Source: an uncultured archaeon | Lineage (GTDB): Archaea > Asgardarchaeota > Thorarchaeia > Thorarchaeales > Thorarchaeaceae | Length of the DNA stretch: 28,379 bases | Assembly: GCA_964458565.1 (NCBI GenBank) | Contig: CAYWJO010000044.1 | Coordinates: forward strand, 1-28,379 | Direction of reading: 5' to 3' | Shown: positions 1 to 27,547 of the stretch, one piece after another | How the letters are laid out: every line of letters begins with the position of its first letter | How positions within the stretch are numbered: position 1 is the stretch's first letter | Translations under genes and position numbers: made by a program | Notes under the pieces: generated by a model | Seen by the model: the letters and a program-made list of their open reading frames with translations, nothing else | What the model was told of the DNA's origin: nothing | The model's database searches: none

Positions 1-83
1 GGGATGGTGATGTGAGCGATCCCTCTGACCCCAGCCAGGCAACCACTGATGTCGAACCTGTGGATGACTCCTTCGACGGGACG
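1..83 (+). repeat. FN3/DDSFDGT repeat copy R1 (partial)
   Basis: 42-83 matches 1964-2005 at 40/42 nt (accactgatgtcgaRcctgtggatgactccttcgacggRacg). Confidence 0.95.
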
Positions 84-764
84 GATGAGGGTTTTATTGA
101 ATCACTTGATAACAGCACCATTGATTCCACACTAAATCAAGTAGAATCAGAAACAGAATGTTATTGGACGGGTCCATGGCCAGAGCTTAATTATAAAAGA
201 GTAGCTACAGATAATGATGATGTAAGTTTTCATTTTAAGAGAGACTTAGTTGGAACAGTAACAGTCTGCAGTGTTTCCCAGGAACCAACTATTGAACCAA
301 ATGATGACTACCTTGATGAAGTTTTGGTGGAATTTATCATAATAGATTTTATAACTAGTTCTTTCTTTTTCTTTATGAGCCGGGCATTAGATATTTTTGA
401 ATATGGTGGATATGTAAATCTCTATGCCCTTGGAGCATCATTTGTTTTTTGGGTTACAGCAGTTGTATATGCTATGTGTGTTATAACTATGGTTACAGTG
501 ATTAATGAATGGAGTTGGGAGTGGGCTGCAGCAATGTTCGTGGTTTTGGGCATTGAATGCTTAATAGCTGCATTCGGAGGTATCATCACTAGTTTATTCA
601 ACTTGACCTTAGGAACGATACTAGGAAATCTTCTAGCAAATGTTGCAATGAACGAGTTAATCGAGGCAATCACAGGATTGTGGCTGAAGAAACTTTATTT
701 TGTTCTTGCAGCGGGTATGTTTTTTACCTGTGCTTGGCAATGCCTTAATGGAGGAATAACCTAA
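3..764 (+). CDS. Cassette 1: end of FN3 domain + variable hydrophobic C-terminal domain (putative polymorphic toxin tip); 5'-partial
   Basis: The frame is open from base 3 (DGDVSDPSDPSQATTDVEPVDDSFDGT), matching the FN3 ends of the later cassettes, so the GTG at 12 is probably not a true start. Then YWTGPWP and several hydrophobic helices. Function is inferred from architecture. Confidence 0.75.
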   Translation, partial: DGDVSDPSDPSQATTDVEPVDDSFDGTDEGFIESLDNSTIDSTLNQVESETECYWTGPWPELNYKRVATDNDDVSFHFKRDLVGTVTVCSVSQEPTIEPNDDYLDEVLVEFIIIDFITSSFFFFMSRALDIFEYGGYVNLYALGASFVFWVTAVVYAMCVITMVTVINEWSWEWAAAMFVVLGIECLIAAFGGIITSLFNLTLGTILGNLLANVAMNELIEAITGLWLKKLYFVLAAGMFFTCAWQCLNGGIT

Positions 765-765
765 A

Positions 766-1146
766 TTGATAGAATTTTTTATCAATGTTTCAGTTTTTAT
801 TCTAGCTTTGATACCCATATATTTCATAGGGATGGGAGTGGTATTAATCCCTATTATCCTTGCACGATTTAACCTAGAAAAGGTACTTGCCTATTGGCAA
901 AGACGATATTTGGTTTTGCTTATTGATATGATCAGTCTTGTAGTAAGTAGCGTATTTGCATTTTTTTTATGGGCTACTACAATGTATAGAAATCTGATAG
1001 CTTCATTGGGCATAACAATGCCAGGTATCGAAATAATTCTCACAGCTGTGTATATTTTCGGATATATTATCTTCCTAAAAGGACATCAAAGATATAGGTC
1101 GAAAGTTATATCTACTGCTAAGCAGCAGAATTCAGACATTGTGTAA
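766..1146 (+). CDS. Small 3-TM membrane protein, putative cognate immunity/partner of cassette 1
   Basis: 126 aa, three hydrophobic segments. TTG start 1 nt after the upstream stop, with GGAGGA at 750-755 inside the upstream gene (translational coupling). Confidence 0.7.
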   Translation: MIEFFINVSVFILALIPIYFIGMGVVLIPIILARFNLEKVLAYWQRRYLVLLIDMISLVVSSVFAFFLWATTMYRNLIASLGITMPGIEIILTAVYIFGYIIFLKGHQRYRSKVISTAKQQNSDIV

Positions 1147-1278
1147 TAGGGAAAGATGTAGCTTGAATATTATAATAAATTTAGGACAAAATGAGCAGTG
1201 TATCAATATTTGGAGCAGCCGCAATCTTTGCTGGATTAGCACCATTTCATATCTTTAGTTAAATAAGGTGATGAAGCA

Positions 1279-1692
1279 ATGAAGAGAGAATCATCAAACC
1301 TGAATGGATTCATATCAGCGAATAAATACGTGATAGTACTTCTAATGATAGGAATTATATTACTGTTGTATAATCTTGTTGTTGGAGATTTGAGATTCAC
1401 GATCTTTACTCTCGGATATGTGCTATTAGCCTTGTTTATACTCTTAATGTCTCGTGATACTACAAAAGAGACTCATGGAATGGCTTATGTTGCACTACTC
1501 AATGATCAATTAAGAAAGTCTCATGATCCACCGAACCTCCTGAGAGAAACAATTAGGAGATTTCTAAAGAATGAGAAACCACCACGAGAGGTAGTGATAA
1601 AGATATTACGTCAATTCTCGAATTATTCTGATGAGGTAGGAATAGAGGCCCAAAGACTTCTCTCTGAAGTTACGTCTACAAATTATCCGTAA
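1279..1692 (+). CDS. 2-TM protein with C-terminal QFxxxSDEVGxxA motif (paralog of 5420-5842), putative orphan immunity/accessory protein
   Basis: GGTGA RBS at 1267-1271; two N-terminal TM helices; ends ILRQFSNYSDEVGIEAQRLL. Confidence 0.75.
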   Translation: MKRESSNLNGFISANKYVIVLLMIGIILLLYNLVVGDLRFTIFTLGYVLLALFILLMSRDTTKETHGMAYVALLNDQLRKSHDPPNLLRETIRRFLKNEKPPREVVIKILRQFSNYSDEVGIEAQRLLSEVTSTNYP

Positions 1693-1768
1693 GACGGAGA
1701 GGAGTAGGACCTAGGAATAGTTCAGGAATAACCGGTGAATAGTTACTTTCATCACTACCATATGTGGT

Positions 1769-2752
1769 ATGTGGACTGGGAACGATGAGCCAGACATGGA
1801 CCACTACTGCATCTACCGGGATGGTATCAAGGTGGGCGAGGTTGACCATCCCACGACAAGCTTTATCGACAGTGGGCTGGAGCCTGAGACCGAGTATACG
1901 TATACAATGACAGCTGTGGACGACGAGGGTAACGAGGGAGATTTCTCAGACCCTGACTCTACCACCACTGATGTCGAGCCTGTGGATGACTCCTTCGACG
2001 GAACGATGTGGGCATCATCAACAGACGAAGCATTATCATTTATTCAAGATTTGCTTATCAGTTCGATGGACCATCTTGATGCGTATTGGACTGGCTGGTG
2101 GCCAGTATGTCACATTGTTATTTCCTGGAATCCATTCGTTAATGTGGAGCTATCTCTACATCTTACCCTAGATTTACTTCTCAACATCGATATTGGGTTG
2201 GATGGATGTGTGTCTTTAATCGTTCCCTTCCTAACATACATTGGCATTGATGAATCTGAGATGTTCTCGGAAACACGTGCAGCGATCTATAGGCTTAGAG
2301 GATTCCATGATGTTATGAACCCATGGGAAATATCTGATTGGGCTGCCATAGCAGCCATGGTGGCAGGTATGGCTGCAGGTACTCCAATAGGTTCTGTAGC
2401 GTATGGAATAGCACTCGTTGCGTGGTGGGTCAGCCTTGCAGGGGCTATAATCAATGATTACATAGGAATGATCAATGGAGATCTAGAACGATTTGATGTC
2501 GGTTTGCAGTGTGTCCAAAAGGGATTTCAATATGCTATTCAAGGTGGCGCAGGTCTTGCAGCAGGAATTGGGATGAACATGGCATATAATGAAAAGGTGT
2601 TAAATAAAGAAGCTGGGAAGCTTATCGATGACAATCCTGCAAGGGAAATAATAGATAATGAGGTTCCAAAGAACGTAATATCTGGAATCCTTAATCTCCT
2701 TACTGGGTTCGTTGTTGTTATTGTCGGAGTACTTATTTGGAATGGTCTATAA
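1769..2752 (+). CDS. Cassette 2: truncated FN3 + variable Gly/Ala-rich hydrophobic C-terminal domain (putative orphan toxin tip)
   Basis: FN3 consensus W..HYCIYRDG..TSFIDSGLEPETEYTYTMTAVDDEGNEG, then DDSFDGT, YWTGWWP and hydrophobic Gly/Ala-rich helices. No signal peptide or clear RBS; the ATG aligns with an ACG (Thr) codon in copy R3. Confidence 0.75.
   Translation: MWTGNDEPDMDHYCIYRDGIKVGEVDHPTTSFIDSGLEPETEYTYTMTAVDDEGNEGDFSDPDSTTTDVEPVDDSFDGTMWASSTDEALSFIQDLLISSMDHLDAYWTGWWPVCHIVISWNPFVNVELSLHLTLDLLLNIDIGLDGCVSLIVPFLTYIGIDESEMFSETRAAIYRLRGFHDVMNPWEISDWAAIAAMVAGMAAGTPIGSVAYGIALVAWWVSLAGAIINDYIGMINGDLERFDVGLQCVQKGFQYAIQGGAGLAAGIGMNMAYNEKVLNKEAGKLIDDNPAREIIDNEVPKNVISGILNLLTGFVVVIVGVLIWNGL
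1771..2005 (+). repeat. FN3/DDSFDGT repeat copy R2
   Basis: 1771-1836 matches 3956-4021 at 63/66 nt; 3' end matches R1. Confidence 0.95.
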
Positions 2753-2766
2753 GGAGCAATGAAAGT

Positions 2767-3114
2767 ATGTCGATTAGTACCACAGACCCGATAGCTGAGA
2801 TGATTGTTTGGGTGAATCTAATTGTCAATCTAGCTTTCGCCTTAATTCTGTTTCTGCGATTGAAGAAAGTAAGGAGTCTCATGTCTTGGACATTTCAATC
2901 CTATCGAAATGGAATAGCTCTCGTAGTTTTATGGAGTAGTATGTTCTTGTCTTTACTATTAATAGCAATAGGTCAAGGTCAAATTAGCCTTCTCCCAGAA
3001 ATACTGATTCGACTTCCATTTGCATGGTTCCCCTTGGTTCCTGTGATTCTCTTGGTATGGACAAAGAAAATGAAGACACTCGATGAGACCAATGAGGTAG
3101 ATAATATTCATTGA
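2767..3114 (+). CDS. Small 3-TM membrane protein, putative cognate immunity/partner of cassette 2
   Basis: Three hydrophobic segments. AAGGAG at 2751-2756 favours ATG 2767 over the ORF-track start 2737. Confidence 0.7.
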   Translation: MSISTTDPIAEMIVWVNLIVNLAFALILFLRLKKVRSLMSWTFQSYRNGIALVVLWSSMFLSLLLIAIGQGQISLLPEILIRLPFAWFPLVPVILLVWTKKMKTLDETNEVDNIH

Positions 3115-3150
3115 ACTTAGCATATACAATTATACCGAGGCTTGAAACTA

Positions 3151-3318
3151 ATGCAACTAGATATACCCGTATTGCAGAGCATCCTTGCGGCAATTTGGGG
3201 TGTTGCGATTATACTACCTCTTCTATTCCTGATGCTACCAGAAGCAGATAAAAAATGGTCTAGTGTATATGAGACCTGTTTCTCATCGAATCTGCGATCA
3301 ATCATGACTGGATTCTAG
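3151..3318 (+). pseudogene. 55-aa single-TM ORF, probable fragment of a membrane (immunity-like) gene
   Basis: Hand translation MQLDIPVLQSILAAIWGVAIILPLLFLMLPEADKKWSSVYETCFSSNLRSIMTGF; same strand as the array; no clear RBS. Confidence 0.35.
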
Positions 3319-3551
3319 GTATTGAAACCTTCGTTGAAGTTTTGGGAGGTCCAAAAAGCATCTATGGAATATTTACAGGAGGATGGAGTACTTTAATAGG
3401 ATATGGAATTGCAGAATGGAATAATATCCAACAAGCTCTAAGTAGATGTATTTTTGGGACAATATTTGTTGCAGCTTGGGCTGTTGTTGTATTGATGATG
3501 GCATCCCTTTTCTTCTGCTACTATGTAACAGGGGCTCCTATCAATTTTTAA
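3273..3551 (+). pseudogene. Remnant C-terminal part of a variable tip domain lacking its FN3 segment
   Basis: Open frame from 3273 (ORF track starts at TTG 3342). LGIETFVEVLGG resembles LGIECLIAAFGG of cassette 1. Ends in a hydrophobic helix directly before a 3-TM gene. Confidence 0.55.
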
Positions 3552-3571
3552 GTTGAGGTCTGATATGTGAA

Positions 3572-3919
3572 TTGATGGAAATATTCATTCTTGGTATAAG
3601 CTTTGGATTTCTAGTGATTTTTGTCTTAATACGGTGGCTTCTCGTTGAATCATTGGCAGTAATGGAAGACAAAGGTCTAGGAGGAAACAAGTATGTAAAT
3701 CGATGGTCCGAGGTTATAAATAACCAACAAAGTATTCTTGGGATTGGTACTACACTACCATTTGCCATTTTAGTGGTGATAACGCTTCTTCAAGCATGGA
3801 TATTGTTCATCTCGGCTGTGGAAAATGAAGTATTATTTATTCTGATTCTATCCATTTTGAGCTTTATGTGCATCATGGCTATTACTTCAGTTCAATACTC
3901 ATACAAGAAGAAATCATGA
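3572..3919 (+). CDS. Small 3-TM membrane protein, putative immunity partner of the 3273-3551 remnant
   Basis: 115 aa, three hydrophobic segments, basic C-terminus; GAGGT upstream. Confidence 0.7.
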   Translation: MMEIFILGISFGFLVIFVLIRWLLVESLAVMEDKGLGGNKYVNRWSEVINNQQSILGIGTTLPFAILVVITLLQAWILFISAVENEVLFILILSILSFMCIMAITSVQYSYKKKS

Positions 3920-3938
3920 TTGGTTATTTCATCAATAA

Positions 3939-4928
3939 GACAATGTTACTATCACGTGGACTGGGAACGAAGAGCCAGACATGGACCACTACTGTATCTA
4001 CCGGGATGGGATCAAGGTGGGTGACGTGGACGAGTCCCAGACGACCTTCACAGACAGCGGCCTGGAACCAGAGACCACGTACAGCTACCGGGTCTCGGCA
4101 GTGGACGACGAGGGCAACGAGGGACCACAGTCGGACGCTGATGACGCCACCACTGACCCTGAGCCTGTGGAGCTGATGGATTGTGATGGGACTGTTGAAG
4201 GATTAGCAGCTGAAGCAACGAGGAAATATGAAACAACGATAGACCAACGAATGATCGAAGCTATACAAGCAATGTCAACGTACTGGACTGGTTGGTGGCC
4301 ACTCCTTCATTTCATCTGTGATAAGACAGCTGATCAGGATGCAAATATAGCCTTTCACTTAACTATTGATTTAATAGGTTGTGTTTCAGCAGAATCGTTC
4401 AACTTATCCTTCCTAGGTGTGGAAGATCTGTCCATTTCTGAGAGCAATGATGTGATTGATGATATCTCGAGTAATGCTCGCTCTCTTTGGGATGCATCAA
4501 TGGAATTATTGAAGAATATTGTTTCAACTGCTTGGTTAATAGCTGAGCTACTTGCGCTCTTTCAGATACCTTCAACTGAATCTATCTTTTGGTTCACACT
4601 TGGAATTGCGATTGGAGCATATTTCTGTTATCTTGCGCTGCTTATTCTACATACTCGTGCATTTAATTTAGATCCGTGGACGAAAGCAATCACATTTTTC
4701 TTTGCAGCTCTACTTCTTGGGGGTGGAGTAGTAAAGAACTTATGGAAAGCAACAAGCCTTGGTCAAGGTAGTATATCTAGATTCTTCCAGAGTAAATATA
4801 TTTCTCATCCAAAATTAAAGAAGGTAGGATTTCAAGGACGTACTCATGTAGGATTGATGCTTGGACAACTAACTTGCTTAATTACCACAATAATAATAGC
4901 TACATTATTCTATCTAGGTGTTCTTTAA
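3939..4928 (+). CDS. Cassette 3: truncated FN3 + variable 4-helix hydrophobic C-terminal domain (putative orphan toxin tip)
   Basis: FN3 homology starts before the first ATG (3981): after TAA 3936-3938 the frame reads DNVTITWTGNEEPDMDHYCIYRDG. Then MDCDGT, YWTGWWP and four hydrophobic helices. Confidence 0.75.
   Translation, partial: DNVTITWTGNEEPDMDHYCIYRDGIKVGDVDESQTTFTDSGLEPETTYSYRVSAVDDEGNEGPQSDADDATTDPEPVELMDCDGTVEGLAAEATRKYETTIDQRMIEAIQAMSTYWTGWWPLLHFICDKTADQDANIAFHLTIDLIGCVSAESFNLSFLGVEDLSISESNDVIDDISSNARSLWDASMELLKNIVSTAWLIAELLALFQIPSTESIFWFTLGIAIGAYFCYLALLILHTRAFNLDPWTKAITFFFAALLLGGGVVKNLWKATSLGQGSISRFFQSKYISHPKLKKVGFQGRTHVGLMLGQLTCLITTIIIATLFYLGVL
3942..4202 (+). repeat. FN3 repeat copy R3
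   Basis: 5' part matches R2 (63/66). 4110-4153 is identical to 6100-6143 (44 nt). 4185-4202 matches 6175-6192 at 17/18. Confidence 0.95.
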
Positions 4929-4944
4929 GTGTAATGAAAAATCA

Positions 4945-5361
4945 ATGGAGATGAATGACATGACTGACGATGAACGTATTTTGTTAATTTGGATGTTGTT
5001 TTTTGATGCTATATACGCGATTGCAGTATATTTCTACTTTGTAAAAGGGAACTTTCTCCGAGTTCGTCTATCACGAGGTGCCTTAATTGAAAATTCTACA
5101 TTGGGTTATTCATTGGCAAAGCTTAGTATAGATTCAAAAATGCATTACAGAGTCTTGAGTATGTTCGGATTCTCTTCACCAGTTCTACTCTTCTGGGTTT
5201 TGAGTTATATGTTCATTCCTATTATGTTTCTTGATATATTTAGAGAAAGCCTTTTGTTTTTAGTAGGCTCTATTCTTCTTGGATTTTGTTTTACACTAGA
5301 AATTAGTGATAAAGAGGATGTTTTGGTAGAAGATTATGATGATCCCATAAATAATATTTGA
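4945..5361 (+). CDS. Small 3-TM membrane protein, putative cognate immunity/partner of cassette 3
   Basis: Three hydrophobic segments, acidic tail. Start is ambiguous among ATG 4945/4951/4960 (GGAG at 4947-4950 favours 4960). Confidence 0.7.
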   Translation: MEMNDMTDDERILLIWMLFFDAIYAIAVYFYFVKGNFLRVRLSRGALIENSTLGYSLAKLSIDSKMHYRVLSMFGFSSPVLLFWVLSYMFIPIMFLDIFRESLLFLVGSILLGFCFTLEISDKEDVLVEDYDDPINNI

Positions 5362-5419
5362 ATAGGACTGGCATTTGAATTGAATAGCATTGACAATAGC
5401 AATAAAAGCGGTAGTTAAA

Positions 5420-5842
5420 ATGACGGAGAAAAAAGAATCCAATGAAATGAATGAAACATTGAATATGGGGATAGCATTAAAGGTGAAAGTGATATGGCGT
5501 TGGACATTGCGAATCTGGTTGATTCTTTTTATTCCAGTGGGCATATTGATGACAGTAGTTGGATTCGACAATTTCACCATCTCCGCATACATTATGGTCT
5601 CCTTTTTCTTGTTCATTACATATCCATCAATAAAGGAAGAATCTGACATATCAGGTAGGGAAGCAAGGATGTTAGAGATCTTTGTGTCAAGGTCTGAAAA
5701 TCCCTCCGCTTCATTCGAAGAGTATATTATAAAATTACGGAATTCAGGCCGAATTGGAAACAATGAACTTCAGGAGTTACTGATACAATTCACCTCCCGA
5801 AGTGATGAAGTAGGAGCAAAAGCAAGAGAAATGATTGGATGA
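5420..5842 (+). CDS. 2-TM protein with C-terminal QFxxxSDEVGxxA motif (paralog of 1279-1692)
   Basis: Two TM helices, ends LLIQFTSRSDEVGAKAREMIG. ATG 5420 preferred over TTG 5390. Confidence 0.75.
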   Translation: MTEKKESNEMNETLNMGIALKVKVIWRWTLRIWLILFIPVGILMTVVGFDNFTISAYIMVSFFLFITYPSIKEESDISGREARMLEIFVSRSENPSASFEEYIIKLRNSGRIGNNELQELLIQFTSRSDEVGAKAREMIG

Positions 5843-5925
5843 TGTAGAAGCTGCATTATTACAGCCTAGATAGGATTATTCAATTTGGAGAGAAGGTAGC
5901 TTCGTTTTGGTGGTTAGAACACTTC

Positions 5926-6213
5926 CACGAGGAGGTCGAGCTGAGCTGGGACGCCAGCGGTGCTGGTGACCTCCACCACTACAACGTGTTTAGGGACGGG
6001 ATGAAGGTGGCGGAGGTGGATGAGCCCACCACAACCTTCACAGACACCGGGCTGGAGCCCGAGACCACCTACTCCTACACGGTGTCAGCGGTGGACGAGG
6101 AGGGCAACGAGGGACCACAGTCGGACGCTGATGACGCCACCACGGAACAGGAGCCTCCCCCTGATGACTCCTTCGATGGGACTGCTGAAGGAATAGTCGA
6201 AACTAGTATCTAA
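5926..6213 (+). pseudogene. Terminal FN3 stub (repeat copy R4) without a C-terminal tip
   Basis: Frame reads HEEVELSWDASGAGDLHHYNVFRDGMKV...GLEPETTYSYTVSAVDEEGNEG...DDSFDGTAEGIVETSI*. FN3 homology starts upstream of the called GTG 5986, and the frame stops 9 codons after DGT. Confidence 0.85.
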
Positions 6214-9970: not shown

Positions 9971-11926
9971 TTGATGGATGAAGCTAAAATTGTTGATACA
10001 TCGGGCTCCGCGGAAGGGTGGAGTTCAGAGCCACTGAATAAGAAGTCTAGTTTTGGAGCAATAGTTGGAATTATTGCAGCTGCATGGGGATTAGTCTTTG
10101 GAATGGGTAATTCACTTGTACCAATTCCTGGTATTGAACGAAGTGCATTGCATGAGGTGGGTTACTTCCTTCCATCCGCAATTTTCTTAGGATTAATTGC
10201 TTTTTCACTCGTCTTACAAATTCCCGGAATTCGCAATCTTAAAACAATGCTCCAAACAGGCATACCAAATGTAATCTATGGTCCTATTATCTTAGGAATA
10301 ATAAGTGCAGGATTTCTCATATATGGAGGATTAACCTTTACTCTTCCTGGACAGATTGGACCATGGACTGTTGATCTAATGACATTTGGATCAATCTTCA
10401 CTGTTTTATGGCAGATGGTTTCGTTCGTATACGCTGATGCACTCAAGACTTGGCATGGCTTAATTGCTGGAATGTGTAATGGTCTTTTCATTCCATTGTT
10501 AGCTGTGGGCGAAGTAATTAATCCAGTACTTGTCTATGCGGCTTATGCAGTTCTTATTGTGGGGCAACTCTTCACATTCCTATTTTGGAAGTCCCCGGAA
10601 AATCATGTCCGTAATTTTGCGAGGTCAACTGACATTGCCAAATTTGGATTTGGTATAATCGGAGTCCTGACATTCGTTATAGGTTCATTCGCAATTTTTA
10701 TAGGACCACTAACCTTAGACAGCGGCGTATTGGTCTGGAATCCTTGGGGAATAATGATATCGAATTCCCTCTTCCTAACAAATCCAGCATTAGTTTACGC
10801 ATTCTGTGCAATGCTTGTACTCTGGATATTTTCTATACCTCGACTTGGCGCTAAGGAATTGAAAATCGCTCATGTTAGAAATAACATCATCTCTTCTGGT
10901 ACGAAATACTTTTTGGCTACATTTGCTGCTCTTGCAGTATATATTGCAGGACAAGCTGGTAGCGAAGTTGCTGCCGCTGCATTGACATTTAACCTCTTGA
11001 TCTCGATGGTTCCTTGCGCAGTCATTATTCTGATAGGCTCTATGTATATCAGCAAATCAGATATTCTAACCGGACTACCATTGCTCTGGGTCGGTGTTGC
11101 TATGCTAATCCATCCATTCACCCTTGCGTGGATGGTCATTATACCTTGGATTGCGGTTCTAATAACTCAGGTATTCATACTTATCGAATCAAAAATAAGA
11201 GGCTTTCTGAGCTTCTCACAGGGCGTTGTAGTACTTGTCCTCATGCTGATAACTTCAGCAGTCTTTGTACTATTCCTCCTCGGAGGCTTTGGTAATGGAC
11301 CTGCAGCTCTTTGGCCAACCAATAAATGGTTCAACATATCTCTATTTGCAGGCGTTCCTATTGCAGTTCAAGCATCTACAGTACTTGCTCTACCAACAAT
11401 ATTCTTAGTAGTCAGAAACATGTCCATTGCTGGATATGCACACTTGCGAGGCTATTCCGGTGGGCCGATTGTAGGAATGAGCTTCATTTTTGCCATAATG
11501 ATACCTCTTATTGCAGGGAGTGATACAGTGACTCACCAAGCGAATATTGGTGCTGCTGTTCTTCTCGCACTCTATACAATTAGCTTTATTCTCGTCCTTT
11601 CCTTTAATTTGAATCTCGCGGGAGATTTAGAAGAGGCAGGACATGATTTTGAGGGTTCGTTCATCCGCATGACAACGATTGCAGGGATGATTGTTGGAAC
11701 CTTGGTAATGTTTGTTGTCTTGGGTACATTTGCTCAATTCACCACATTACCCACAGACATTGCGACTGTTATCACACTATTAGTGACCTTTGTTGTTGGT
11801 CTTGAGATACTACTTGACATAGGTTGGCTGTTCGCTGCATTCCGCTTGGGAGTATTCAAGCAGGGATTCAAGTTCTTAAAAATGGAAGAAGCTGTTGCTT
11901 CAGCACCCATTATATCCTATGACTAG
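9971..11926 (+). CDS. Large polytopic membrane protein (~18 TM) of unknown function
   Basis: 651 aa, almost continuous hydrophobic helices; AAGGTG upstream; no family motif recognised. Confidence 0.85.
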   Translation: MMDEAKIVDTSGSAEGWSSEPLNKKSSFGAIVGIIAAAWGLVFGMGNSLVPIPGIERSALHEVGYFLPSAIFLGLIAFSLVLQIPGIRNLKTMLQTGIPNVIYGPIILGIISAGFLIYGGLTFTLPGQIGPWTVDLMTFGSIFTVLWQMVSFVYADALKTWHGLIAGMCNGLFIPLLAVGEVINPVLVYAAYAVLIVGQLFTFLFWKSPENHVRNFARSTDIAKFGFGIIGVLTFVIGSFAIFIGPLTLDSGVLVWNPWGIMISNSLFLTNPALVYAFCAMLVLWIFSIPRLGAKELKIAHVRNNIISSGTKYFLATFAALAVYIAGQAGSEVAAAALTFNLLISMVPCAVIILIGSMYISKSDILTGLPLLWVGVAMLIHPFTLAWMVIIPWIAVLITQVFILIESKIRGFLSFSQGVVVLVLMLITSAVFVLFLLGGFGNGPAALWPTNKWFNISLFAGVPIAVQASTVLALPTIFLVVRNMSIAGYAHLRGYSGGPIVGMSFIFAIMIPLIAGSDTVTHQANIGAAVLLALYTISFILVLSFNLNLAGDLEEAGHDFEGSFIRMTTIAGMIVGTLVMFVVLGTFAQFTTLPTDIATVITLLVTFVVGLEILLDIGWLFAAFRLGVFKQGFKFLKMEEAVASAPIISYD

Positions 11927-18509: not shown

Positions 18510-20051
18510 GTGATAGTTCCAGGTACTACAGTCGGAGTGACGCTCATTCCAGGATTCGTGGAAATTCGCGATAAAGGCATCGTTAAGAAAAGAATTCCGA
18601 TTAAAAAGAAATCATTTGATGAAGTTCTATCTGAGGTTGAACTTTATTTTTCTGGACGAGGACGACGTCTTGCTCCTTACATACTCAAGGACATCCTAAT
18701 TAAAATTGGACTTCCACGGGTCAAAGTCATAATAGAGAGGGAGAGTGATGTTGAGCTCAAAGATAAACGAAAAAGTAGAGTCAAGCCTGAACCAACGAAA
18801 CCGAAGGTCGAAGAGAAACCAAAGGAGATAGAATCAATCTCAGAGAGTCAGGATGATACTGTAAAAGAAACCCCTGTCATAGAAAACAAACCAATTGAAA
18901 CACAACCAGAAGAATCAGGTACAATTACCATGGAAGATTTCGATGACATTCAAGAAGCACTGCTTCAAGTGGATAAGTTGAGTGATTCATTCATGAGTTC
19001 AAAACCTGCTGATATTGTGTCAGCTTCTTCAAAACCAGAGATAAAGATTAAGATAGAAGGAATCGAAGAGGTTCGAGCTACTACTAAGACAACAGCGACT
19101 AGACCAAAACACACTGAAGAAATAGATGATACGATTGAATTCGAAACAGTTGATTTGAAAGAGGACAGCATTATTGAGATTGTTGAAAAAGATGTCCCTC
19201 AGGACGAAGTGGAGGATACCATAGTTGAGGAGCCTATGGTTTCTGATGTTTCTACTACTCAGGAAGAAGAACCATCAATTGAAATTGATGAAGAAGCAAT
19301 CGAGATTACAGAAAGAGATGGAGAAATAACTGCTACAAAGGAGATTTCTCTTGAAGAAGAGCATGATATCAAAGAAGAGATTCATGAAGAAGGACTGGAA
19401 ACAAAACTAAAAGAATCGACTGCAGCTCCTTATGGGTCTCAAGTTATGGCGACTGCTAGTAGACATATGGTAAAACCACTTGTTCAAGCAAAGGCATTGG
19501 TGCTCGGTGAGGAAGGAGTAGGAAAATCAAGTCTTATTGAAAATGCAGGTTTGGAAGCTTTGGAAACAGATGAGGGTTTTAGCACTTATAGAAATGCAAG
19601 AACATTTGAATTAACCGGACATAGAGTCAAGCTGATAGCATGGTCGTTTGAAGAGGCAGTAAGAGCAAAGATATCTCGAACTGACTACTATGCTAATGCT
19701 GATGTAATAATCATAGTTTATGCTACCTGTGACAGATGGAGTTTTGAAAGTATTGCGTTCTGGTTGAAAGAGGTACAGCTAACGAATGAGGTCCTACCAC
19801 CCGTAGTTCTTGTTGGAAATAAAAAAGATTTACGTGTAGGTGAGATAGATGATGATTCCGGTGATGAACCAGTGGATACTCAAGAGGGATTCACAGTCGC
19901 AGAATATCTCGCAAAGAATCTGGGACTAGAGGATAGCATGCATCCTATTGCTTTCCTTGAAACATCTTGTCTAACTCATGAAGGTGTGGAAGACGTGTTT
20001 GTAACTGCATCTGAACTTTTCGTAGAACACAGTTCCAAATTAGACAAATAA
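18510..20051 (+). CDS. Ras-superfamily small GTPase domain at the C-terminus of a protein with a basic N-terminal domain and long acidic linker
   Basis: LVLGEEGVGKSS (G1), YYANADVIIIVY, SFESIAFW, VLVGNKKD (G4), FLETSC (G5), GVEDVF. Confidence 0.9.
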   Translation: MIVPGTTVGVTLIPGFVEIRDKGIVKKRIPIKKKSFDEVLSEVELYFSGRGRRLAPYILKDILIKIGLPRVKVIIERESDVELKDKRKSRVKPEPTKPKVEEKPKEIESISESQDDTVKETPVIENKPIETQPEESGTITMEDFDDIQEALLQVDKLSDSFMSSKPADIVSASSKPEIKIKIEGIEEVRATTKTTATRPKHTEEIDDTIEFETVDLKEDSIIEIVEKDVPQDEVEDTIVEEPMVSDVSTTQEEEPSIEIDEEAIEITERDGEITATKEISLEEEHDIKEEIHEEGLETKLKESTAAPYGSQVMATASRHMVKPLVQAKALVLGEEGVGKSSLIENAGLEALETDEGFSTYRNARTFELTGHRVKLIAWSFEEAVRAKISRTDYYANADVIIIVYATCDRWSFESIAFWLKEVQLTNEVLPPVVLVGNKKDLRVGEIDDDSGDEPVDTQEGFTVAEYLAKNLGLEDSMHPIAFLETSCLTHEGVEDVFVTASELFVEHSSKLDK

Positions 20052-21243: not shown

Positions 21244-21960
21244 TTGTGGGGTGTTCGTGTGGTCGATGAACCCATAGTGTCGCTAAAGAAAGTATCCAAG
21301 ATTTATACCATGGGCGATATCATTGTTCCTGCACTTCGAGGAGTGGATTTGGAAATTCAAAAAGGGTCTACAATTGGTATCATGGGCCCGTCAGGATCTG
21401 GTAAAACCACTCTACTCAATTTGATCGGAGCACTTGATAGACCCTCAGAAGGATCTGTGCTCGTGGGTGGTCTTGATATCACAAACATGAATGAGAAAGA
21501 ATTGACTCTGGTTAGGCGTGAACGCATCAGCTTCGTATTTCAGTTCTTCAATCTTTTGCCAGTATTAACAGCGTATGAGAATGTAGAACTTCCACTTCTG
21601 ATAGCAAATGTTCCGGAAGAAGAAAGAAGACAACGAGTAGAACACCTCCTAGGTCTTGTTGGACTGACAGATAGAGCGGACCATCGACCAGATGAACTGT
21701 CTGGTGGAGAATCACAAAGAGTTGCTATTGCACGTGCACTTGCTAAACCAAGAAGCTCTGCAGAGTCCATTGTAGTTCTAGCGGATGAACCAACTGGAGA
21801 TCTGGACACACAGACAGGTGAGGAGATTATGGAAGTCTTGCTTGAGCTGACACATAAGGAAGGTGGAACGCTTATTGTTGTGACGCATGACCCAGATGTT
21901 GGTGCTAAGATGGATAGAGTCTATAACATGAGAGACGGTCAAATTGAGAGCGTGACATAG
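21244..21960 (+). CDS. ABC transporter ATP-binding protein, LolD/MacB family
   Basis: GPSGSGKT, FVFQFFNL, LSGGESQRVAIARAL, LADEPTG, VTHD. True start may be GTG 21259. Confidence 0.95.
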   Translation: MWGVRVVDEPIVSLKKVSKIYTMGDIIVPALRGVDLEIQKGSTIGIMGPSGSGKTTLLNLIGALDRPSEGSVLVGGLDITNMNEKELTLVRRERISFVFQFFNLLPVLTAYENVELPLLIANVPEEERRQRVEHLLGLVGLTDRADHRPDELSGGESQRVAIARALAKPRSSAESIVVLADEPTGDLDTQTGEEIMEVLLELTHKEGGTLIVVTHDPDVGAKMDRVYNMRDGQIESVT

Positions 21961-21972
21961 GGGAGAGAAGTA

Positions 21973-24732
21973 ATGGCGGCAGTGCCTGTTGGATATGAAG
22001 CATTTCAGAGCAAGAGAAGAAAAGCCGTTACACTTGCTTGTTTTGTGTTAGCCGCAGCCATGGTTATGGGAATCACTGTCTTCGTAGATTCTTACTCGGT
22101 CCATGAATGGGATAACCTCGTGGATGTGGGTGATGCGGCGATAGCGGTCCGATCAGATAGATACAATGACATTGTAAATATAGCTGATACTGTCGCTGGC
22201 TTGCCAGAGATAACTAAGAGTAGTACTCTATTGACCACTACCGGAGTAATAACAAGAGAACTAAACATCACTACTTGGAGTGACGAGGGAGATGTTTTTG
22301 TTCTTGGAGATACATTTCTTGAGAATTTTCCAAACTACTTCTACATTGAAGGATCTTTACCCTCAAATGGTGAAGAGATTGTGATTTCAGAGAACCTCAT
22401 TGATTGGTATCAGGTTGGAATTGGGGACTATGTCAATTATTCTACATCAAGGAGCAGTGAGAGAATCCTTGTTAAAATAGTAGGCACTTTTACTAGGGAG
22501 CTTGGAGCAGACACCGAGCATTATTATGATTCATACTACTGGAGCATTGCTATAATTCCGGAAGAACTAGTAAACACACAGAACCGAGAACTTCAGATCA
22601 TTGCTGATATTGATAGAACTACAATATCACCATTTGACTCCCAGAGTTCACTTTCATATCTACAAGGTATTGATGAAAAGATTCGAAGGTTTGACCCGAA
22701 TTACAATCCACAAGAGGGCGTTTATAATTCCAAATACAGAGTATACAATTATTTGGTAGATGGAGTTTTAACCTACATAATGTGGCAGAGTGGGATTAGA
22801 TATTCTCAACTAACAAGATCAGGGGGCATTATACTTCTTGTTCTTCTTGTTGCTATGTTGTCAATCAGATATAACGTTCAGGATAGAAGATTCGAACGGA
22901 CAATGTTACAAGCGAGAGGAGCAACCAAAGCCCAACTAAATAAGAGCGTCACAAGGGAAGTTCTTCTACTCGCGTTTCTATCAACACTTCTTGGTATCGG
23001 TATTGGAGTATTAACTAGCAGAGTGGCCATGGCAACTGAGGGATTCCTCAATCTTAATTTCACAAAATTATTCACTGAACCTCTCCTTATTTCGATAGAG
23101 TCTCTGCTTATCTCATTAATTGTGGGTATTGTTTTGCCATTTGGAGCATGGATTGGTTATAGAAATGTAGAATCCACCAGAGAATCTGCAGAGGGGACTG
23201 GAAGGATAGCATCCATAGCGAAGGGTATGCGAATACTGAGATGGGACTTCTTGGTCATTATACTCGCAACACTGTTATTATATGGTTTATTAAGTCTAGG
23301 CGTCGTCGCTCAATTTATTCCGTTTCTGTCATTAATTATTGCTGCATTACCATTAGTAATCTTCGTAGGTATAGCTAGCCTCTCAATCAAGGCATTAAGG
23401 AAGGGAAGTTATTTTATTTCCAAATTATTCGAAGGACTCATTGGCAAATTGTCAGCATCAATAGGAATTCGGAGAATTGGAAAAGAAGCATCCTCAGCGG
23501 GAGTTGTTGCCGCTGTAATAGTACTCGCTGTGAGCTTAGCTTGGGCAAATGCTGTAGTTGATGTATCTCTACCTGAAACACAATTACGTCATGGAAGATT
23601 TGGAATTGGAGGGGACATTTCATTTGCACTTGAAAGGTCTGAACGCGATTTATGGGATGCACTTGAGGAAAACTTGTCAGCACAGTCAGGTGTGGTTGAT
23701 ACAACCATTGTCAATGTTGTAGATTTACAGGTCTCACAATATTCATCAATTCCATTCATGGCTATAGACCCAGAGTATCTCAATATCGGGTATGATTATC
23801 TTGGAGAGCGCTATAGTAATTCGAGCTTCTCATCAATGTTTAATGAGCTCCTCGACCATCCAGATTATGCGATTGTAACAAGCGATATCGCTCAGATTTT
23901 CGACCTGAGTGTAGGAAGCGTACTTCAAGCATTTATTGAAACAGGAATAGGTCCAATTGTCATCCCATTTAGAGTCGCAGGAATTGTTGAAGGTCTTACT
24001 GATTTTGCCCTCCTTCCTAATCAATATGGATACTGGGGATACAGTCAGATCGGCTCATACCGTGTTATGGTCGATTACAATTATGTGAGTAGCTTCATCA
24101 ATACAACCTGGGTAAGTAGCAGCTTTCTCTGTGCATCGACATACAGAAGCACAAATGGAACCGTTATTATTGAAGATTTGATGGAATCCGGTGCAGGTTT
24201 AGCAGTTGATGGAATAAGATACACTTCGACAAGAACAATTGTTGATACATACATTAGATCCGTAGCATACCAGATGGATCGTTCAGTAGACACCATGACA
24301 TTGGTTGTCTTAGTTGGTACGATATTTGGAGCTTTTTCAATATACTCAACTGAAGGAATTCGTGCTAGGAGAAGAGAGATTGCGTTACTGCGTTCAAATG
24401 GAACAACAAACAGAACGATAATAGGAATTCAGATAGCGGAGATGACTGTTCTCACTCTTATCAGTTTTCTACTCCTTCTAATTTTCTCACCAATTCTGAT
24501 TTCCAATGTATTGGCTACGTCAAACTGGACATATTCTTATCGTGTCCAGATTTTTCCAGTCGATATTTTTACAGTTATTCCAATCATCACTTTGCTAAGT
24601 GTACTTCTTCTATTCTTTATTCTCTCCACTCTTTTCATAGTAGTCGCAGCATACTTGAGTGTTCGAATCAACCTTGCTGAGTCACTCAATTCATCATGGG
24701 CTGAATCAGGACCATTGGGAGGAGATATGTAA
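21973..24732 (+). CDS. FtsX/MacB-like ABC permease (duplicated architecture)
   Basis: TM + large extracellular domain + 3 TM, twice; RRFERTMLQARGAT and RRREIALLRSNG motifs. Confidence 0.9.
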   Translation: MAAVPVGYEAFQSKRRKAVTLACFVLAAAMVMGITVFVDSYSVHEWDNLVDVGDAAIAVRSDRYNDIVNIADTVAGLPEITKSSTLLTTTGVITRELNITTWSDEGDVFVLGDTFLENFPNYFYIEGSLPSNGEEIVISENLIDWYQVGIGDYVNYSTSRSSERILVKIVGTFTRELGADTEHYYDSYYWSIAIIPEELVNTQNRELQIIADIDRTTISPFDSQSSLSYLQGIDEKIRRFDPNYNPQEGVYNSKYRVYNYLVDGVLTYIMWQSGIRYSQLTRSGGIILLVLLVAMLSIRYNVQDRRFERTMLQARGATKAQLNKSVTREVLLLAFLSTLLGIGIGVLTSRVAMATEGFLNLNFTKLFTEPLLISIESLLISLIVGIVLPFGAWIGYRNVESTRESAEGTGRIASIAKGMRILRWDFLVIILATLLLYGLLSLGVVAQFIPFLSLIIAALPLVIFVGIASLSIKALRKGSYFISKLFEGLIGKLSASIGIRRIGKEASSAGVVAAVIVLAVSLAWANAVVDVSLPETQLRHGRFGIGGDISFALERSERDLWDALEENLSAQSGVVDTTIVNVVDLQVSQYSSIPFMAIDPEYLNIGYDYLGERYSNSSFSSMFNELLDHPDYAIVTSDIAQIFDLSVGSVLQAFIETGIGPIVIPFRVAGIVEGLTDFALLPNQYGYWGYSQIGSYRVMVDYNYVSSFINTTWVSSSFLCASTYRSTNGTVIIEDLMESGAGLAVDGIRYTSTRTIVDTYIRSVAYQMDRSVDTMTLVVLVGTIFGAFSIYSTEGIRARRREIALLRSNGTTNRTIIGIQIAEMTVLTLISFLLLLIFSPILISNVLATSNWTYSYRVQIFPVDIFTVIPIITLLSVLLLFFILSTLFIVVAAYLSVRINLAESLNSSWAESGPLGGDM

Positions 24733-27542
24733 TGTTCCTATGGTCCAGATTAGCATACAGAAAACCTGAAGTATTAGCGACATTGATTATCTTCTCCTTA
24801 GCCTCAGGAGTTGTAGGAGGAACCTTCTTCTTCATTGATTCAATTGGTCCAGAAGTCTTTCAGGATCTTACCCAGGATGTAGGGGTTCATATGGAGATTG
24901 CATTTACTGACAGTTTCTATAGACAAGACAATTTTACACTTGAAGAAGCAATAGAAATCGCAAACAATCAGACGTCAATAGATTTCACAGAGGCAGTCGT
25001 AAGAGTTGAAACTTATTCGTATCCCGACTATAATAGGCTGATTACTATTGGTGTAAACTCATCCTTCTTCCAGAAGTATGGTTCTGCGATTGAACTCATT
25101 CATGGAGATTACACAGAGCTTACTAACGAAACCTGCTTTATTTCTCAATATCTAGCCTCAATAAGGGAATACGAAATAGGAGACACCTATAATATATCAC
25201 TTGAATATTGGTATGAGGGAGAAACTGAATACGAATGGAGGGAGATTACACAACCGTATACTATCGTGGGGATATTCGATTCTGAGATGTATATGGAATA
25301 CGATTACAGAGATGATTATGAGTATAGTGCGTTATCTGTGATAACCACATGGGAAGGACTTGTTGATAGGTTCGAAGAAGTTGGTTTCAGTCAGTATGAT
25401 GGATTAGATCTGAGGATATGGGCACAATTTGATGCGGATATCCTTCTTGGAGGTGGAGTATCAGATATAGCGACTGAATTGGGTGATACTCAGAGAAGGA
25501 TAGAACAAAAGGGCTTGCCATATCTTGTTGTCTATCGATTTGATCTATACTATTCAATATATGACTACTCTGCTTGGTCAATTGGAATGCTTTCGGTGGC
25601 ATTGACTATATCGATTCCAGCCATCTTGATGGGTTTCATGCTGATTCAATACAATTCAAAACTTCAGGCTGATGAAGACAGGAGGGATGTTGGTACCGTT
25701 AAGACTCGCGGAGCTTCTGGGTTACAGGCATTTAGATGGATACTAGGTAACGCTCTCGTTATTGGAATCCTAGGAAGCCTTGGTGCACTGTTAGCGGGAT
25801 TTTTAACCAGTCTGGTCTCTGGAGGAGTCACGGGACTATTGGAGTATAACCTTCACCTATTACTCAATTTCCAAGTGATTCTTAGACCAAATGCAATATT
25901 GCTTGTGTTCACTTATTCATTTGGAATTGGCATGATAGTTTCGCTACCCCAAGCTATCAATGCATTCCTAATGACTCCTATTGAAGCACATACTAGTCTT
26001 GAAAGGGATATTCTGCTTGAGAAAGAGCAATTGGGAGGATACTATAAGGAGTTGGTAGGACTAGCGATTTCGATTTACTTCCTTCCTTATATCATGCTTA
26101 TCTTTGCATTCTCCTCATATATCAGCTACATATCATTATCAATTTTCACAATTGTTGCACCTCTCTTCGCAATCTTGATATTTTCTGTTACGAGATTATG
26201 TTCAAGACCCACATCTTCGATTAAGACGAAGATACTTACACGAATGAAGAGACCTTCACTTGTTGTTGGTACAAGATTACTTGGTAGAGTAGCAGGCTTG
26301 TACAAAAAGAGTGAAGCGATGGGTGTATTGTTCATTTCACTTGTATTTGCAGCTGGTACTCTATCATCAGTCGCGGCTACAAGTGGGACTGCGCATGTAG
26401 AAGATTTGTTATATTTCGAGAAGGGAGCTGACATAATAGTCCATGCAAATCCTGATTTACATAATGTAACACTTGACATGCTAGATAATATCACCAGAGT
26501 AGAGGGCGTGAGTGGAGTTTCCGCGATGTACACTGTAAGAGGCCGAGCCTCCTATATCTCGGAGAGGAGAACAGTAACATCTTGGGTACAAATAGTAGGT
26601 GTTCAACCAGATCAGTGGTTAGAAACCGCATTTTGGCTCCCCTACTTCACACTCCATGGAACTCCTGAAAATGCAGTCCAATCACTCTCTACTAGTAATT
26701 CAAATGTTCTCTCCAGTTTTCGACCACTTGTTACATATCAACCGGGTTTCTTAGGTCAACTTATTCCAATATTTTCTAATCAAATGATGCTGGGTATAGA
26801 TACATTCAATGATACAATTTGGAATAATTGCACTATTACTGATGTGGTTTCGAACTCTGACATGTCATATGGGCCTACATACATAGCTGGATATTCAAGA
26901 CAGAGTTCAACTGTTGTTGTCAATCTAGAATACATACATAACATTCTCAATACTACAGAGGTAGACTCCTTCTATGTTAAGATTACAGATGGAGCAAACG
27001 TGACCAAGTTAATTGAAGATATTGAAGCAGTTGCTCCGTTCAGTTTCAGTAACGTAGAATCACCTCTTCCCACAATTGATTCAGTCTTCTCATCACGTAT
27101 GGGACAGGCTCTGTTAGGAACATATTCGCTAAATATTCTCTACGCTCTCATCTACCTAAGTATAGGATTCTCCATTGTATCAGCGATAAAAGGACGAAAT
27201 CTACGAAAACAATATTCCATTCTACGAGCTTTGGGTAGTGGACGGCAATCCATCATAGTCCCTGTTCTCGTAGATGCATTAATCACAATCATATTAGCAG
27301 GAATCATCGGAATTATTCTTGGTGTTCTGCTTGCATACTTTCTCTCTGCAATTCCATTGTTCTTTATAGGAAATGTAACTACGCTCTTTTGGGCAGATCT
27401 ACCAGTTAGAATCATTACACCAACGCTGTTATTCATAGGCTTGGTAGGATTTACGATGTTCTTTGGTTTATTGTCCAGCTATGTTGTATCTCGACGAATT
27501 CTGAGTCGTAATATTGCAGAAGAAATCCAATATTCGGAGTGA
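24732..27542 (+). CDS. FtsX/MacB-like ABC permease (duplicated architecture)
   Basis: RRDVGTVKTRGAS and RKQYSILRALG motifs; TAATG stop/start overlap with the previous gene. Confidence 0.9.
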   Translation: MFLWSRLAYRKPEVLATLIIFSLASGVVGGTFFFIDSIGPEVFQDLTQDVGVHMEIAFTDSFYRQDNFTLEEAIEIANNQTSIDFTEAVVRVETYSYPDYNRLITIGVNSSFFQKYGSAIELIHGDYTELTNETCFISQYLASIREYEIGDTYNISLEYWYEGETEYEWREITQPYTIVGIFDSEMYMEYDYRDDYEYSALSVITTWEGLVDRFEEVGFSQYDGLDLRIWAQFDADILLGGGVSDIATELGDTQRRIEQKGLPYLVVYRFDLYYSIYDYSAWSIGMLSVALTISIPAILMGFMLIQYNSKLQADEDRRDVGTVKTRGASGLQAFRWILGNALVIGILGSLGALLAGFLTSLVSGGVTGLLEYNLHLLLNFQVILRPNAILLVFTYSFGIGMIVSLPQAINAFLMTPIEAHTSLERDILLEKEQLGGYYKELVGLAISIYFLPYIMLIFAFSSYISYISLSIFTIVAPLFAILIFSVTRLCSRPTSSIKTKILTRMKRPSLVVGTRLLGRVAGLYKKSEAMGVLFISLVFAAGTLSSVAATSGTAHVEDLLYFEKGADIIVHANPDLHNVTLDMLDNITRVEGVSGVSAMYTVRGRASYISERRTVTSWVQIVGVQPDQWLETAFWLPYFTLHGTPENAVQSLSTSNSNVLSSFRPLVTYQPGFLGQLIPIFSNQMMLGIDTFNDTIWNNCTITDVVSNSDMSYGPTYIAGYSRQSSTVVVNLEYIHNILNTTEVDSFYVKITDGANVTKLIEDIEAVAPFSFSNVESPLPTIDSVFSSRMGQALLGTYSLNILYALIYLSIGFSIVSAIKGRNLRKQYSILRALGSGRQSIIVPVLVDALITIILAGIIGIILGVLLAYFLSAIPLFFIGNVTTLFWADLPVRIITPTLLFIGLVGFTMFFGLLSSYVVSRRILSRNIAEEIQYSE

Positions 27543-27547
27543 TAATC

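Follow-up and report, generated by a model that had tools for sequence, protein, structure and literature searches.

Here, we describe a locus of an uncultured thorarchaeon (assembly GCA_964458565.1; 3.7 Mb in 93 contigs) in which the gene for a predicted surface protein stands head-to-head with an array of alternative C-terminal ends. The array lies at the beginning of the window, by which we mean the whole stretch of 28,379 nt that was analyzed, at the start of contig CAYWJO010000044.1 (C44). It consists of cassettes, each with a piece of an FN3 domain (the "handle") fused in frame to a membrane-helix domain (the "tip") and followed by the gene for a small membrane protein (the "partner"), while the full-length gene that ends in FN3 and a tip (the "parent") lies on a second contig, C61. 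The observations fit best with a polymorphic C-terminus system like that of the orphan modules of CdiA and Rhs proteins (PMC3150448, PMC3967940, PMC3482391). That the locus serves cassette exchange seems likely to us. The fuller explanation, which joins a two-armed locus, a cassette reservoir, exchange, and a membrane activity of tip and partner, is probable by a modest degree, and the assignment of tip and partner as toxin and immunity protein is tentative.

Organization of the cassette array

A preliminary description of the window, made from its nucleotides alone, had reported four copies of an FN3-encoding segment on one strand, three of them fused in frame to divergent regions with about four hydrophobic helices. 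We find the DGT codons exactly where it had placed them, at 75, 1997, 4185, and 6175 (spacings of 1922, 2188, and 1990 nt), within the reading frames 3-764, 1769-2752, 3981-4928, and 5986-6213, all on the plus strand. The regions past DGT (tips 1, 2, and 3) are 229, 251, and 247 amino acids long and 15-16% identical to one another, with a common YWTG[W/P]WP motif about 30 residues past DGT. By hydropathy, a tip has about four hydrophobic segments, a partner has three, and the third gene of a unit has two. The partner genes start at 766, 2767, and 4945, which is 2, 15, and 17 nt past the tip stops, so that a different gene with three transmembrane (TM) segments does follow closely behind each tip; no relationship of the three partners to one another is detectable by sequence comparison. 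The claim of a second small membrane gene in every unit holds for units 1 and 3, where the gene is homologous, and fails for unit 2, which has short TM open reading frames (ORFs) and an extra 3-TM gene. The features of the array, all on the plus strand, are as follows.

1..74, plus strand: 3' end of the FN3 handle of cassette 1; its ORF starts 298 nt before the contig start, at L031:2271, and is complete in the public contigs L031 and L045
75..764, plus strand: tip 1, with DGT, a YWTGPWP neck, and about four hydrophobic helices (tip hidden Markov model [HMM], E 1e-42)
766..1146, plus strand: partner 1, 126 amino acids, 3 TM segments
1279..1692, plus strand: third gene of unit 1, 2 TM segments and a C-terminal SDEVG tail of about 60 amino acids (tail HMM, E 7e-29)
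1771..1996, plus strand: truncated FN3 handle of cassette 2, homologous to the parent from TGGACTGGG; 81.7% identical over 219 nt to the second FN3 of the parent (FN3-2)
1997..2752, plus strand: tip 2 (tip HMM, E 1e-63)
2767..3114, plus strand: partner 2, 115 amino acids, 3 TM segments
3115..3571, plus strand: two short ORFs with TM segments, at 3142-3318 and 3342-3551, whose status is uncertain (from ORF calls)
3572..3919, plus strand: extra 3-TM partner-like gene without a tip of its own, called as a 114-amino-acid gene in public contigs
3956..4184, plus strand: FN3 handle of cassette 3, truncated at the 5' boundary that cassette 2 also has; 85.7% identity to parent FN3-2 over 244 nt
4185..4928, plus strand: tip 3 (tip HMM, E 1e-68)
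4945..5361, plus strand: partner 3, 138 amino acids, 3-4 TM segments
5390..5842, plus strand: third gene of unit 3, TM segments and an SDEVG tail (tail HMM, E 6e-26)
5929..6213, plus strand: terminal FN3 handle stub (stub 4), without strand A, with a stop 9 codons past DGT and no tip

The same junctions are seen in at least 10 independent public contigs at 99.9-100% identity. Since these contigs reproduce the junctions, the repeats are not an artefact of assembly, a concern that the preliminary description had raised.

A full-length parent in head-to-head orientation

The genome holds one full-length gene of this kind, an intact ORF of 1275 amino acids on the minus strand of C61 (12454-16290). 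From its N-terminus, the predicted protein comprises a signal-peptide-like segment, an N-domain, two lectin-like beta-sandwich repeats, two fn3 domains, and a tip. The fn3 domains score 55 bits against Pfam fn3 (PF00041; cut-off, 25 bits; profile length, 84), the signal-peptide-like segment stops just ahead of a conserved mature start (A.TAWTAD), and parent orthologues are 49% identical across the first 840 residues. Downstream (3') of the parent on C61 are a small TM gene, an orphan tip, and a second small TM gene. Within the N-domain, the His of SHGG and the Cys of AC.S (HLF..C.S) are invariant in seven parents. This domain has no Pfam match, and PDB sequence searches with the N-terminal and lectin-like parts of the parent returned no match. 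Nearly all of the top 50 Foldseek matches of an N-domain model (pLDDT 59) have the caspase fold, the best being caspases, MALT1, metacaspase, and CHAT at weak scores (E 3e-3 to 3e-2; TM-score, 0.3-0.4), which weakly suggests a candidate caspase-like domain.

The two contigs are connected by the JGI metagenome contig L031, which matches the final 2455 nt of C61 (C61:15231-17685) at 100% identity and positions 1-4521 of the window at 99.96% identity, and which spans the 113-nt gap from the end of C61 (17685) to window position 1. The FN3 of cassette 1 is where both C61 and the window contig break off. All or part of the gap is covered by three JGI contigs and one ENA contig, and contigs L045 to L051, from other samples, support both sides of the join. 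On the bridging contigs, the parent lies about 2.3 kb upstream of the window, on the opposite strand and transcribed away from the array, and the head-to-head join places alternative C-terminal segments in inverted orientation beside the constant part of the gene. The large FN3 surface protein that had been predicted upstream of the window is thus present, with a signal-peptide-like N-terminus, two FN3 domains, and the same tip domain, on the opposite strand and not in line with the array. It does not end in cassette 1, as had also been proposed: on the bridging contigs, cassette 1 is a separate ORF of 353 amino acids behind a DUF6036 nucleotidyltransferase gene, with a complete FN3 (36.2 bits, profile 2-83 of 84) and no signal peptide. 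Its ATG overlaps the stop of the DUF6036 gene (ATGA), and the window holds only the last 24 codons of its handle.

In the whole-genome survey, wherever parent and orphans occur on one contig elsewhere, the orphans are downstream and on the same strand, which makes the inverted arm described here unusual. Head-to-head handles were also seen in another Thorarchaeota genome (contig L026, about 2227-2722; QMYR01000131.1), where a minus-strand handle with its DGT overlaps the region 5' of a plus-strand cassette; this arrangement may be an inversion scar.

Between parent and array lie a spacer of about 670 nt with an FN3 relic, a 52-amino-acid ORF together with the DUF6036 nucleotidyltransferase gene, and cassette 1. 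The relic (L031:1321-1467, plus strand) is decayed, is identical to the FN3 of cassette 1 at 15/28 positions (E 3e-10), and is a remnant of a further handle or of a second parent. The 52-amino-acid ORF and the nucleotidyltransferase gene (L031:1569-2274, plus strand; DUF6036, 30.8 bits, with a weak AbiEii-like match) possibly form a toxin-antitoxin-like module.

With such neighbors, the right arm could be taken for debris, that is, for the functionless remains of a second parent gene and its array. The position of the relic upstream, the toxin-antitoxin-like nucleotidyltransferase module between relic and cassette 1, the whole FN3 that cassette 1 retains, the ending of the array in a handle stub, and a nonsense variant of tip 2 (see below) would all agree with decay. 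However, this genome has intact ORFs for tips 1 to 3 and for every partner, the same sequences recur unchanged in many samples, and conversion tracts are common to the array and the live parent, so that we regard debris as very improbable.

Handles and the domain ahead of the tip

Whereas fn3 is matched over the whole domain and above threshold in the parent and in cassette 1, the matches in cassettes 2 and 3 and in the stub are partial (profile 28-80 or 42-78 of 84) and fall below the cut-off, at 19-24 bits. The internal handles lack strand A, as the preliminary description had noted, and those of cassettes 2 and 3 also lack most of strand B; the orphans have no signal peptide and start inside the beta-sandwich domain. 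Nucleotide identity to the parent rises sharply about 224 nt ahead of DGT and drops to background just past it, and cassettes 2 and 3 have one common 5' handle boundary, at TGGACTGGG. The sequence comparison supports a view of the cassettes as orphan C-terminal modules that bear a piece of the conserved pre-tip domain.

The handles are mosaic. Handle 3 resembles the parent and cassette 2 in its 5' half and stub 4 in its 3' half. In a GENECONV-style shuffle of variable sites (5000 shuffles), the runs of agreeing sites exceed chance for cassette 3 and stub 4 (24 variable sites; 0/5000 shuffles), for cassette 1 and cassette 2 (15 variable sites; 0/5000 shuffles), and for the parent and cassette 2 (21 variable sites; p 0.0014). 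The longest exact match between handle 2 and parent FN3-2 is 45 nt, stub 4 and handle 3 have an exact match of 44 nt, and the parent and the C61 orphan have in common a 51/53-nt repeat, which was confirmed.

The six handle copies of this genome all consist of FN3, whereas the same tips in other Thorarchaeota genomes come after the end of a lectin-like repeat (...LVDMRIHDINVV...) and a linker, and the parents there are without FN3. Across 30 cassettes from 11 genomes, handles have a median identity of 62% when compared within a genome and of 33% when compared between genomes; for tips, the figure is 22% in both comparisons. By this measure, the handle follows the parent of each genome, and the tip types are old and common to several genera. 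Because the handle follows the genome's own parent, the orphans are tied to that parent.

The same handles bear on another proposal, namely, that the cassettes encode independently expressed membrane protein pairs, translated from internal starts, whose FN3 pieces are remnants of a duplication of the parent 3' end, with no ongoing exchange. Such expression could start from the ATG of cassette 2 at the homology boundary (1769) or that of cassette 3 at a conserved Met (3981), and the overlap of the cassette 1 start with the upstream stop and the inverted orientation of the cassettes relative to the parent are also in its favor. The products, however, would begin inside a truncated beta-sandwich without a signal peptide, and handles without a role should decay, whereas those observed stay genome specific and mosaic. 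In addition, nonsense and frameshifted tips occur, and the same tip types are found on full-length parents elsewhere. Taken together, we find independent pairs an improbable account.

Tips and their association with partners

Tips are 15-25% identical overall and are set off by the DGT/YWTGWWP boundary. The preliminary description had not recognized the family, and indeed the tip domain belongs to no Pfam or NCBIfam family; beyond FN3, no part of cassette or parent matches either database. Tip types are interchanged between orphan and parent positions across genomes. The variable part of tip 1 matches the tip resident on a full-length parent, P0137, at 30% identity (E 1e-12), and relatives of tip 3 are present in other genera (E 1e-13 to 3e-16) and end the full-length proteins P0086 and P0088, while tip 2 is 47% identical to a tip in another metagenome-assembled genome. 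Conversely, the tip type resident on the parent of this genome occurs as orphans elsewhere.

An AF2 model of tip 2 (pLDDT 74) consists of a helix, a four-strand sheet that bears YWTGWWP, and four to five long helices. Neither Foldseek against PDB (best E 0.18, nothing specific) nor a wide VIA-align search (best Z 9.1, generic helical bundles within the noise range) nor an ESM Atlas shape search (TM-score, <=0.33) connected this model to a known structure. For the colicin pore domain, the tips gave no Pfam, sequence, or fold match. A protein-language search yielded sub-threshold matches only; among them, a PT-TG pre-toxin cluster (0.86) was set aside, as Pfam gave no confirmation.

Tips and partners vary together. 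Partner 2 occurs as an identical protein 3' of tip 2 in nine public contigs, and partner 3 belongs to a partner family found behind tip 3-type tips in other genera (hhalign probability, 96%; E 2.5e-9). In a set of 38 cassettes, ten pairs have related partners, and in nine of these pairs the tips are related as well (expected, 0.56; 0/5000 permutations), a count that includes related genomes and so overstates independence. A counter-example is tip 2 and its 47% identical relative, the partners of which are not detectably similar (E 0.09).

The third genes of units 1 and 3 (1279-1692 and 5390-5842) are homologous and end in a common C-terminal SDEVG tail. This tail of about 60 amino acids, with the motif [RS][NSD]D[EA][VI]G, is carried by array membrane proteins in nine or more genomes, where it is either part of the partner or encoded by a separate 2-TM gene (also in L010, L011, L012, L020, L025, and L030, among others), and matches no known family.

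Strain variation and turnover

Cassette content was expected to vary between strains if the array were a reservoir, and such variation is present in public contigs of the same population. In three samples (L034, L054, and L055, corresponding to window 670-1800), all of tip 1 but its last ~32 codons has given way to a different membrane gene, while partner 1 (with 2 amino acid changes) and the third gene are kept. The 16 differences are bunched at 704-831, with identity beyond, a pattern that marks a point of recombination within the 3' end of tip 1 in this variant. A single public contig (L042, corresponding to window 2168-3200) has a W-to-stop change at window 2427 in tip 2, next to an unchanged partner 2. 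Frameshifted tips are also found in the arrays of another genome (G007). A candidate decayed tip ahead of the tipless partner-like gene, at 3273-3551, was rejected, as its similarity to a tip is not significant (BLAST E 0.12, HMM E 0.21).

Exact-pattern scans of metagenome contigs for the junction of the L034 variant and for the start of tip 3 gave no match, and exact-protein look-ups returned short contigs only, which break at the handles.

Because partner-only genes exist and partners outlast the loss of tips, toxin and immunity protein are the favored form of the tip/partner pair. A serious rival is nonlethal recognition of self and nonself, in which a variable tip and its cognate partner would form an identity pair that is read in the membrane after contact or membrane exchange, the cassettes diversifying identity and not weaponry; such a pair would be comparable to IdsD and IdsE of Proteus. 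Architecture and co-variation speak for recognition as much as they do for the explanation preferred here, no toxin fold was found for the tips, and a membrane-embedded variable part below a lectin-like or beta-sandwich ectodomain suits adhesion or recognition. Identity pairs, however, would be expected to disappear together, whereas the tipless partner-like gene (3572-3919) and the retention of partner 1 after the loss of tip 1 are the classic signature of selection for protection. In our estimation, recognition is therefore unlikely, though it is the alternative that we take most seriously.

Distribution

A profile of the tip domain retrieves 192 representatives among 1.84 billion proteins; in the best 150 of these, about 8 are long proteins and about 140 are of orphan size. 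The domain is present in 25 of the 76 other genomes of this Thorarchaeota family, and the profile search of 225 genomes, drawn from 29 other families of the phylum, found it in none. A full-text search combining Thorarchaeota or Asgard with polymorphic toxin found no published description, a 2019 survey of archaeal polymorphic toxins being outside its coverage.

A possible route of cassette exchange

Present-day exchange, the silence of the cassettes, and their function are what we infer from these observations. In the mechanism that we propose, the left arm (C61, leftward) provides the surface protein of 1275 amino acids with its own small membrane partner, followed by one orphan tip and partner, and the right arm (the window, rightward) holds three tip and partner cassettes and the terminal handle stub. 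Each cassette opens with the FN3 that, in the parent, stands ahead of the tip; the tip itself has a conserved neck (DGT...YWTGWWP) and, behind it, about four membrane helices that form a variable bundle. The cassettes would serve as a reservoir: recombination in the FN3 handle could attach a new tip to the constant body of the surface protein and bring the cognate partner gene with it. With the C61 orphan, one crossover would remove the resident tip; with the window cassettes, it would invert 6.6 kb (cassette 2) or 8.8 kb (cassette 3) with a reciprocal swap of tips; alternatively, gene conversion could copy a tip across. As the window cassettes are inverted relative to the parent, inversion or gene conversion, and not deletion, would be the route. 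The tip and partner would set a cell-specific membrane activity between neighboring cells, most likely in the form of a membrane-damaging effector that the partner holds in check.

Several results weigh against this proposal, in addition to the relatedness of genomes in the co-variation count and the dissimilar partners of related tips mentioned above. With the window cassettes inverted, the deletion-type swap documented for Rhs cannot act on them. The handles are only 70-86% identical to the parent, with exact tracts of <=45 nt, and no recombinase or integrase domain was found in window ORFs of at least 110 amino acids or in L031, the left flank of C61 having been read as ORFs only. There are no delivery machinery or secretion-system genes in the window. 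In no public contig is the parent body joined to tips 1 to 3, the short contigs breaking at the handles. Tip, partner, and third gene match no known toxin or immunity family, no Pfam or NCBIfam entry, and no solved fold. Finally, the tips carry strongly hydrophobic helices, above all the last one, and could be polytopic anchors that stay in the membrane of the producer.

A more particular version, in which reversible inversion (or gene conversion) between the inverted FN3 handles switches membrane tip and partner independently of a recombinase, is a speculative one that we consider rather improbable. If true, it would represent a shufflon- or vlsE-like generator of diversity, built entirely from undescribed protein families, for antagonism or identity between cells in the prokaryotes most closely related to eukaryotes. 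Next to nothing has been learned about the ways in which Asgard archaea fight, recognize, or adhere to their neighbors, and cell contact is central to models of eukaryogenesis. The locus is a concrete candidate in this context: it combines a single surface protein with a defined point of exchange and with tips matched to their partners. What this genome adds is that the handle matches the domain ahead of the tip in its own parent, that a reservoir can sit inverted and head-to-head with the parent, and that natural strains vary in cassette content.

Comparison with known systems

In bacteria, orphan cdiA-CT/cdiI and rhs-CT/rhsI modules recombine onto the main gene (Poole 2011, PMC3150448; Koskiniemi 2014, PMC3967940). 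The locus described here resembles these systems, and polymorphic toxin systems of the CdiA/Rhs/MafB type in general, in its large exported parent with a polymorphic C-terminus, in its tandem orphan C-terminal fragments that bear a conserved upstream piece and lack start and export signals, and in the small gene that each orphan has behind it. It differs in its host, an Asgard archaeon, and in having no type V (T5SS) or type VI (T6SS) secretion system and no Rhs repeats. The variable module here is a membrane-helix bundle of putative activity with 3-TM partners, the handle is FN3 (in relatives, the end of a lectin-like repeat), and the array is inverted relative to the parent.

Polymorphic toxins exported by the Sec pathway may carry caspase-like processing peptidases, and classical polymorphic toxin systems are reported to be scarce in archaea, where most immunity families are absent (Zhang et al. 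2012, PMC3482391). Points of likeness are a predicted Sec signal peptide, repeats or adhesion-type domains, and a candidate caspase-like peptidase domain in the same protein, as well as a variable C-terminus, probably diversified by recombination with standalone cassettes, and an adjacent cognate gene. Unlike in those systems, the candidate caspase-like domain is N-terminal here and not just ahead of the tip, and none of the toxin or immunity families of that study is matched.

Among archaea, a hypervariable locus is known from the VARTIG modules of Thermococcales (Makarova 2021, PMC8416519). These likewise have a large secreted Ig-domain protein as the first gene of a co-directed array of small genes, mostly for membrane proteins, in a layout like that of polymorphic toxin systems and with no recognizable toxin. 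In VARTIG, however, it is the C-terminal Ig domain (arCOG07710-type) that varies, whereas here the Ig-like FN3 is constant and the membrane bundle varies; the protein families are others, and the lineage is Thorarchaeota and not Thermococcales. Membership in VARTIG was ruled out on these grounds.

The remaining likenesses are of a more general nature. Pore-forming colicins and the membrane-depolarizing effectors of type VI and type VII (T7SS) secretion systems are countered by small polytopic immunity proteins. The array parallels them in setting a helical, Gly/Ala-rich, presumably membrane-active C-terminal domain beside a 3-4-TM protein, a resemblance that would be functional only.

Alternative ends or oppositely oriented silent cassettes are also a feature of the R64 pilV shufflon, of the phage Mu G segment (S/U with S'/U'), and of Borrelia vlsE, and in phage Mu the alternative tip moves together with its own accessory gene. 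As in these systems, a constant N-terminal body stands here beside inverted alternative C-terminal ends. The inversion systems of R64 and Mu, however, rely on a dedicated site-specific recombinase (Rci or Gin) and short crossover sites, whereas no recombinase was found here, and the sole inverted repeats are the FN3 handles of about 220 nt. In Proteus mirabilis, IdsD and IdsE form a strain-specific cognate pair whose specificity regions are located in membrane segments. The cognate pairing of two proteins with variable membrane-segment regions is similar; there is no homology, and Ids combines T6SS delivery with the lack of orphan cassette arrays.

Other features of the window

Past the array, the rest of the window comprises housekeeping genes. 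Three further observations concern this part. A 651-amino-acid ORF at 9971-11926 (plus strand) has no Pfam match. An Asgard-type eukaryote-like GTPase of 513 amino acids is encoded at 18510-20051 (plus strand); its long N-terminal region has no Pfam match, and its C-terminal part is a small-GTPase domain of the Ras/Roc kind (Pfam Ras, 66.6 bits). Finally, 21244-28378 (plus strand) encodes two very large FtsX/MacB-type permeases of 919 and 936 amino acids, each with an ABC ATPase gene before or after it.

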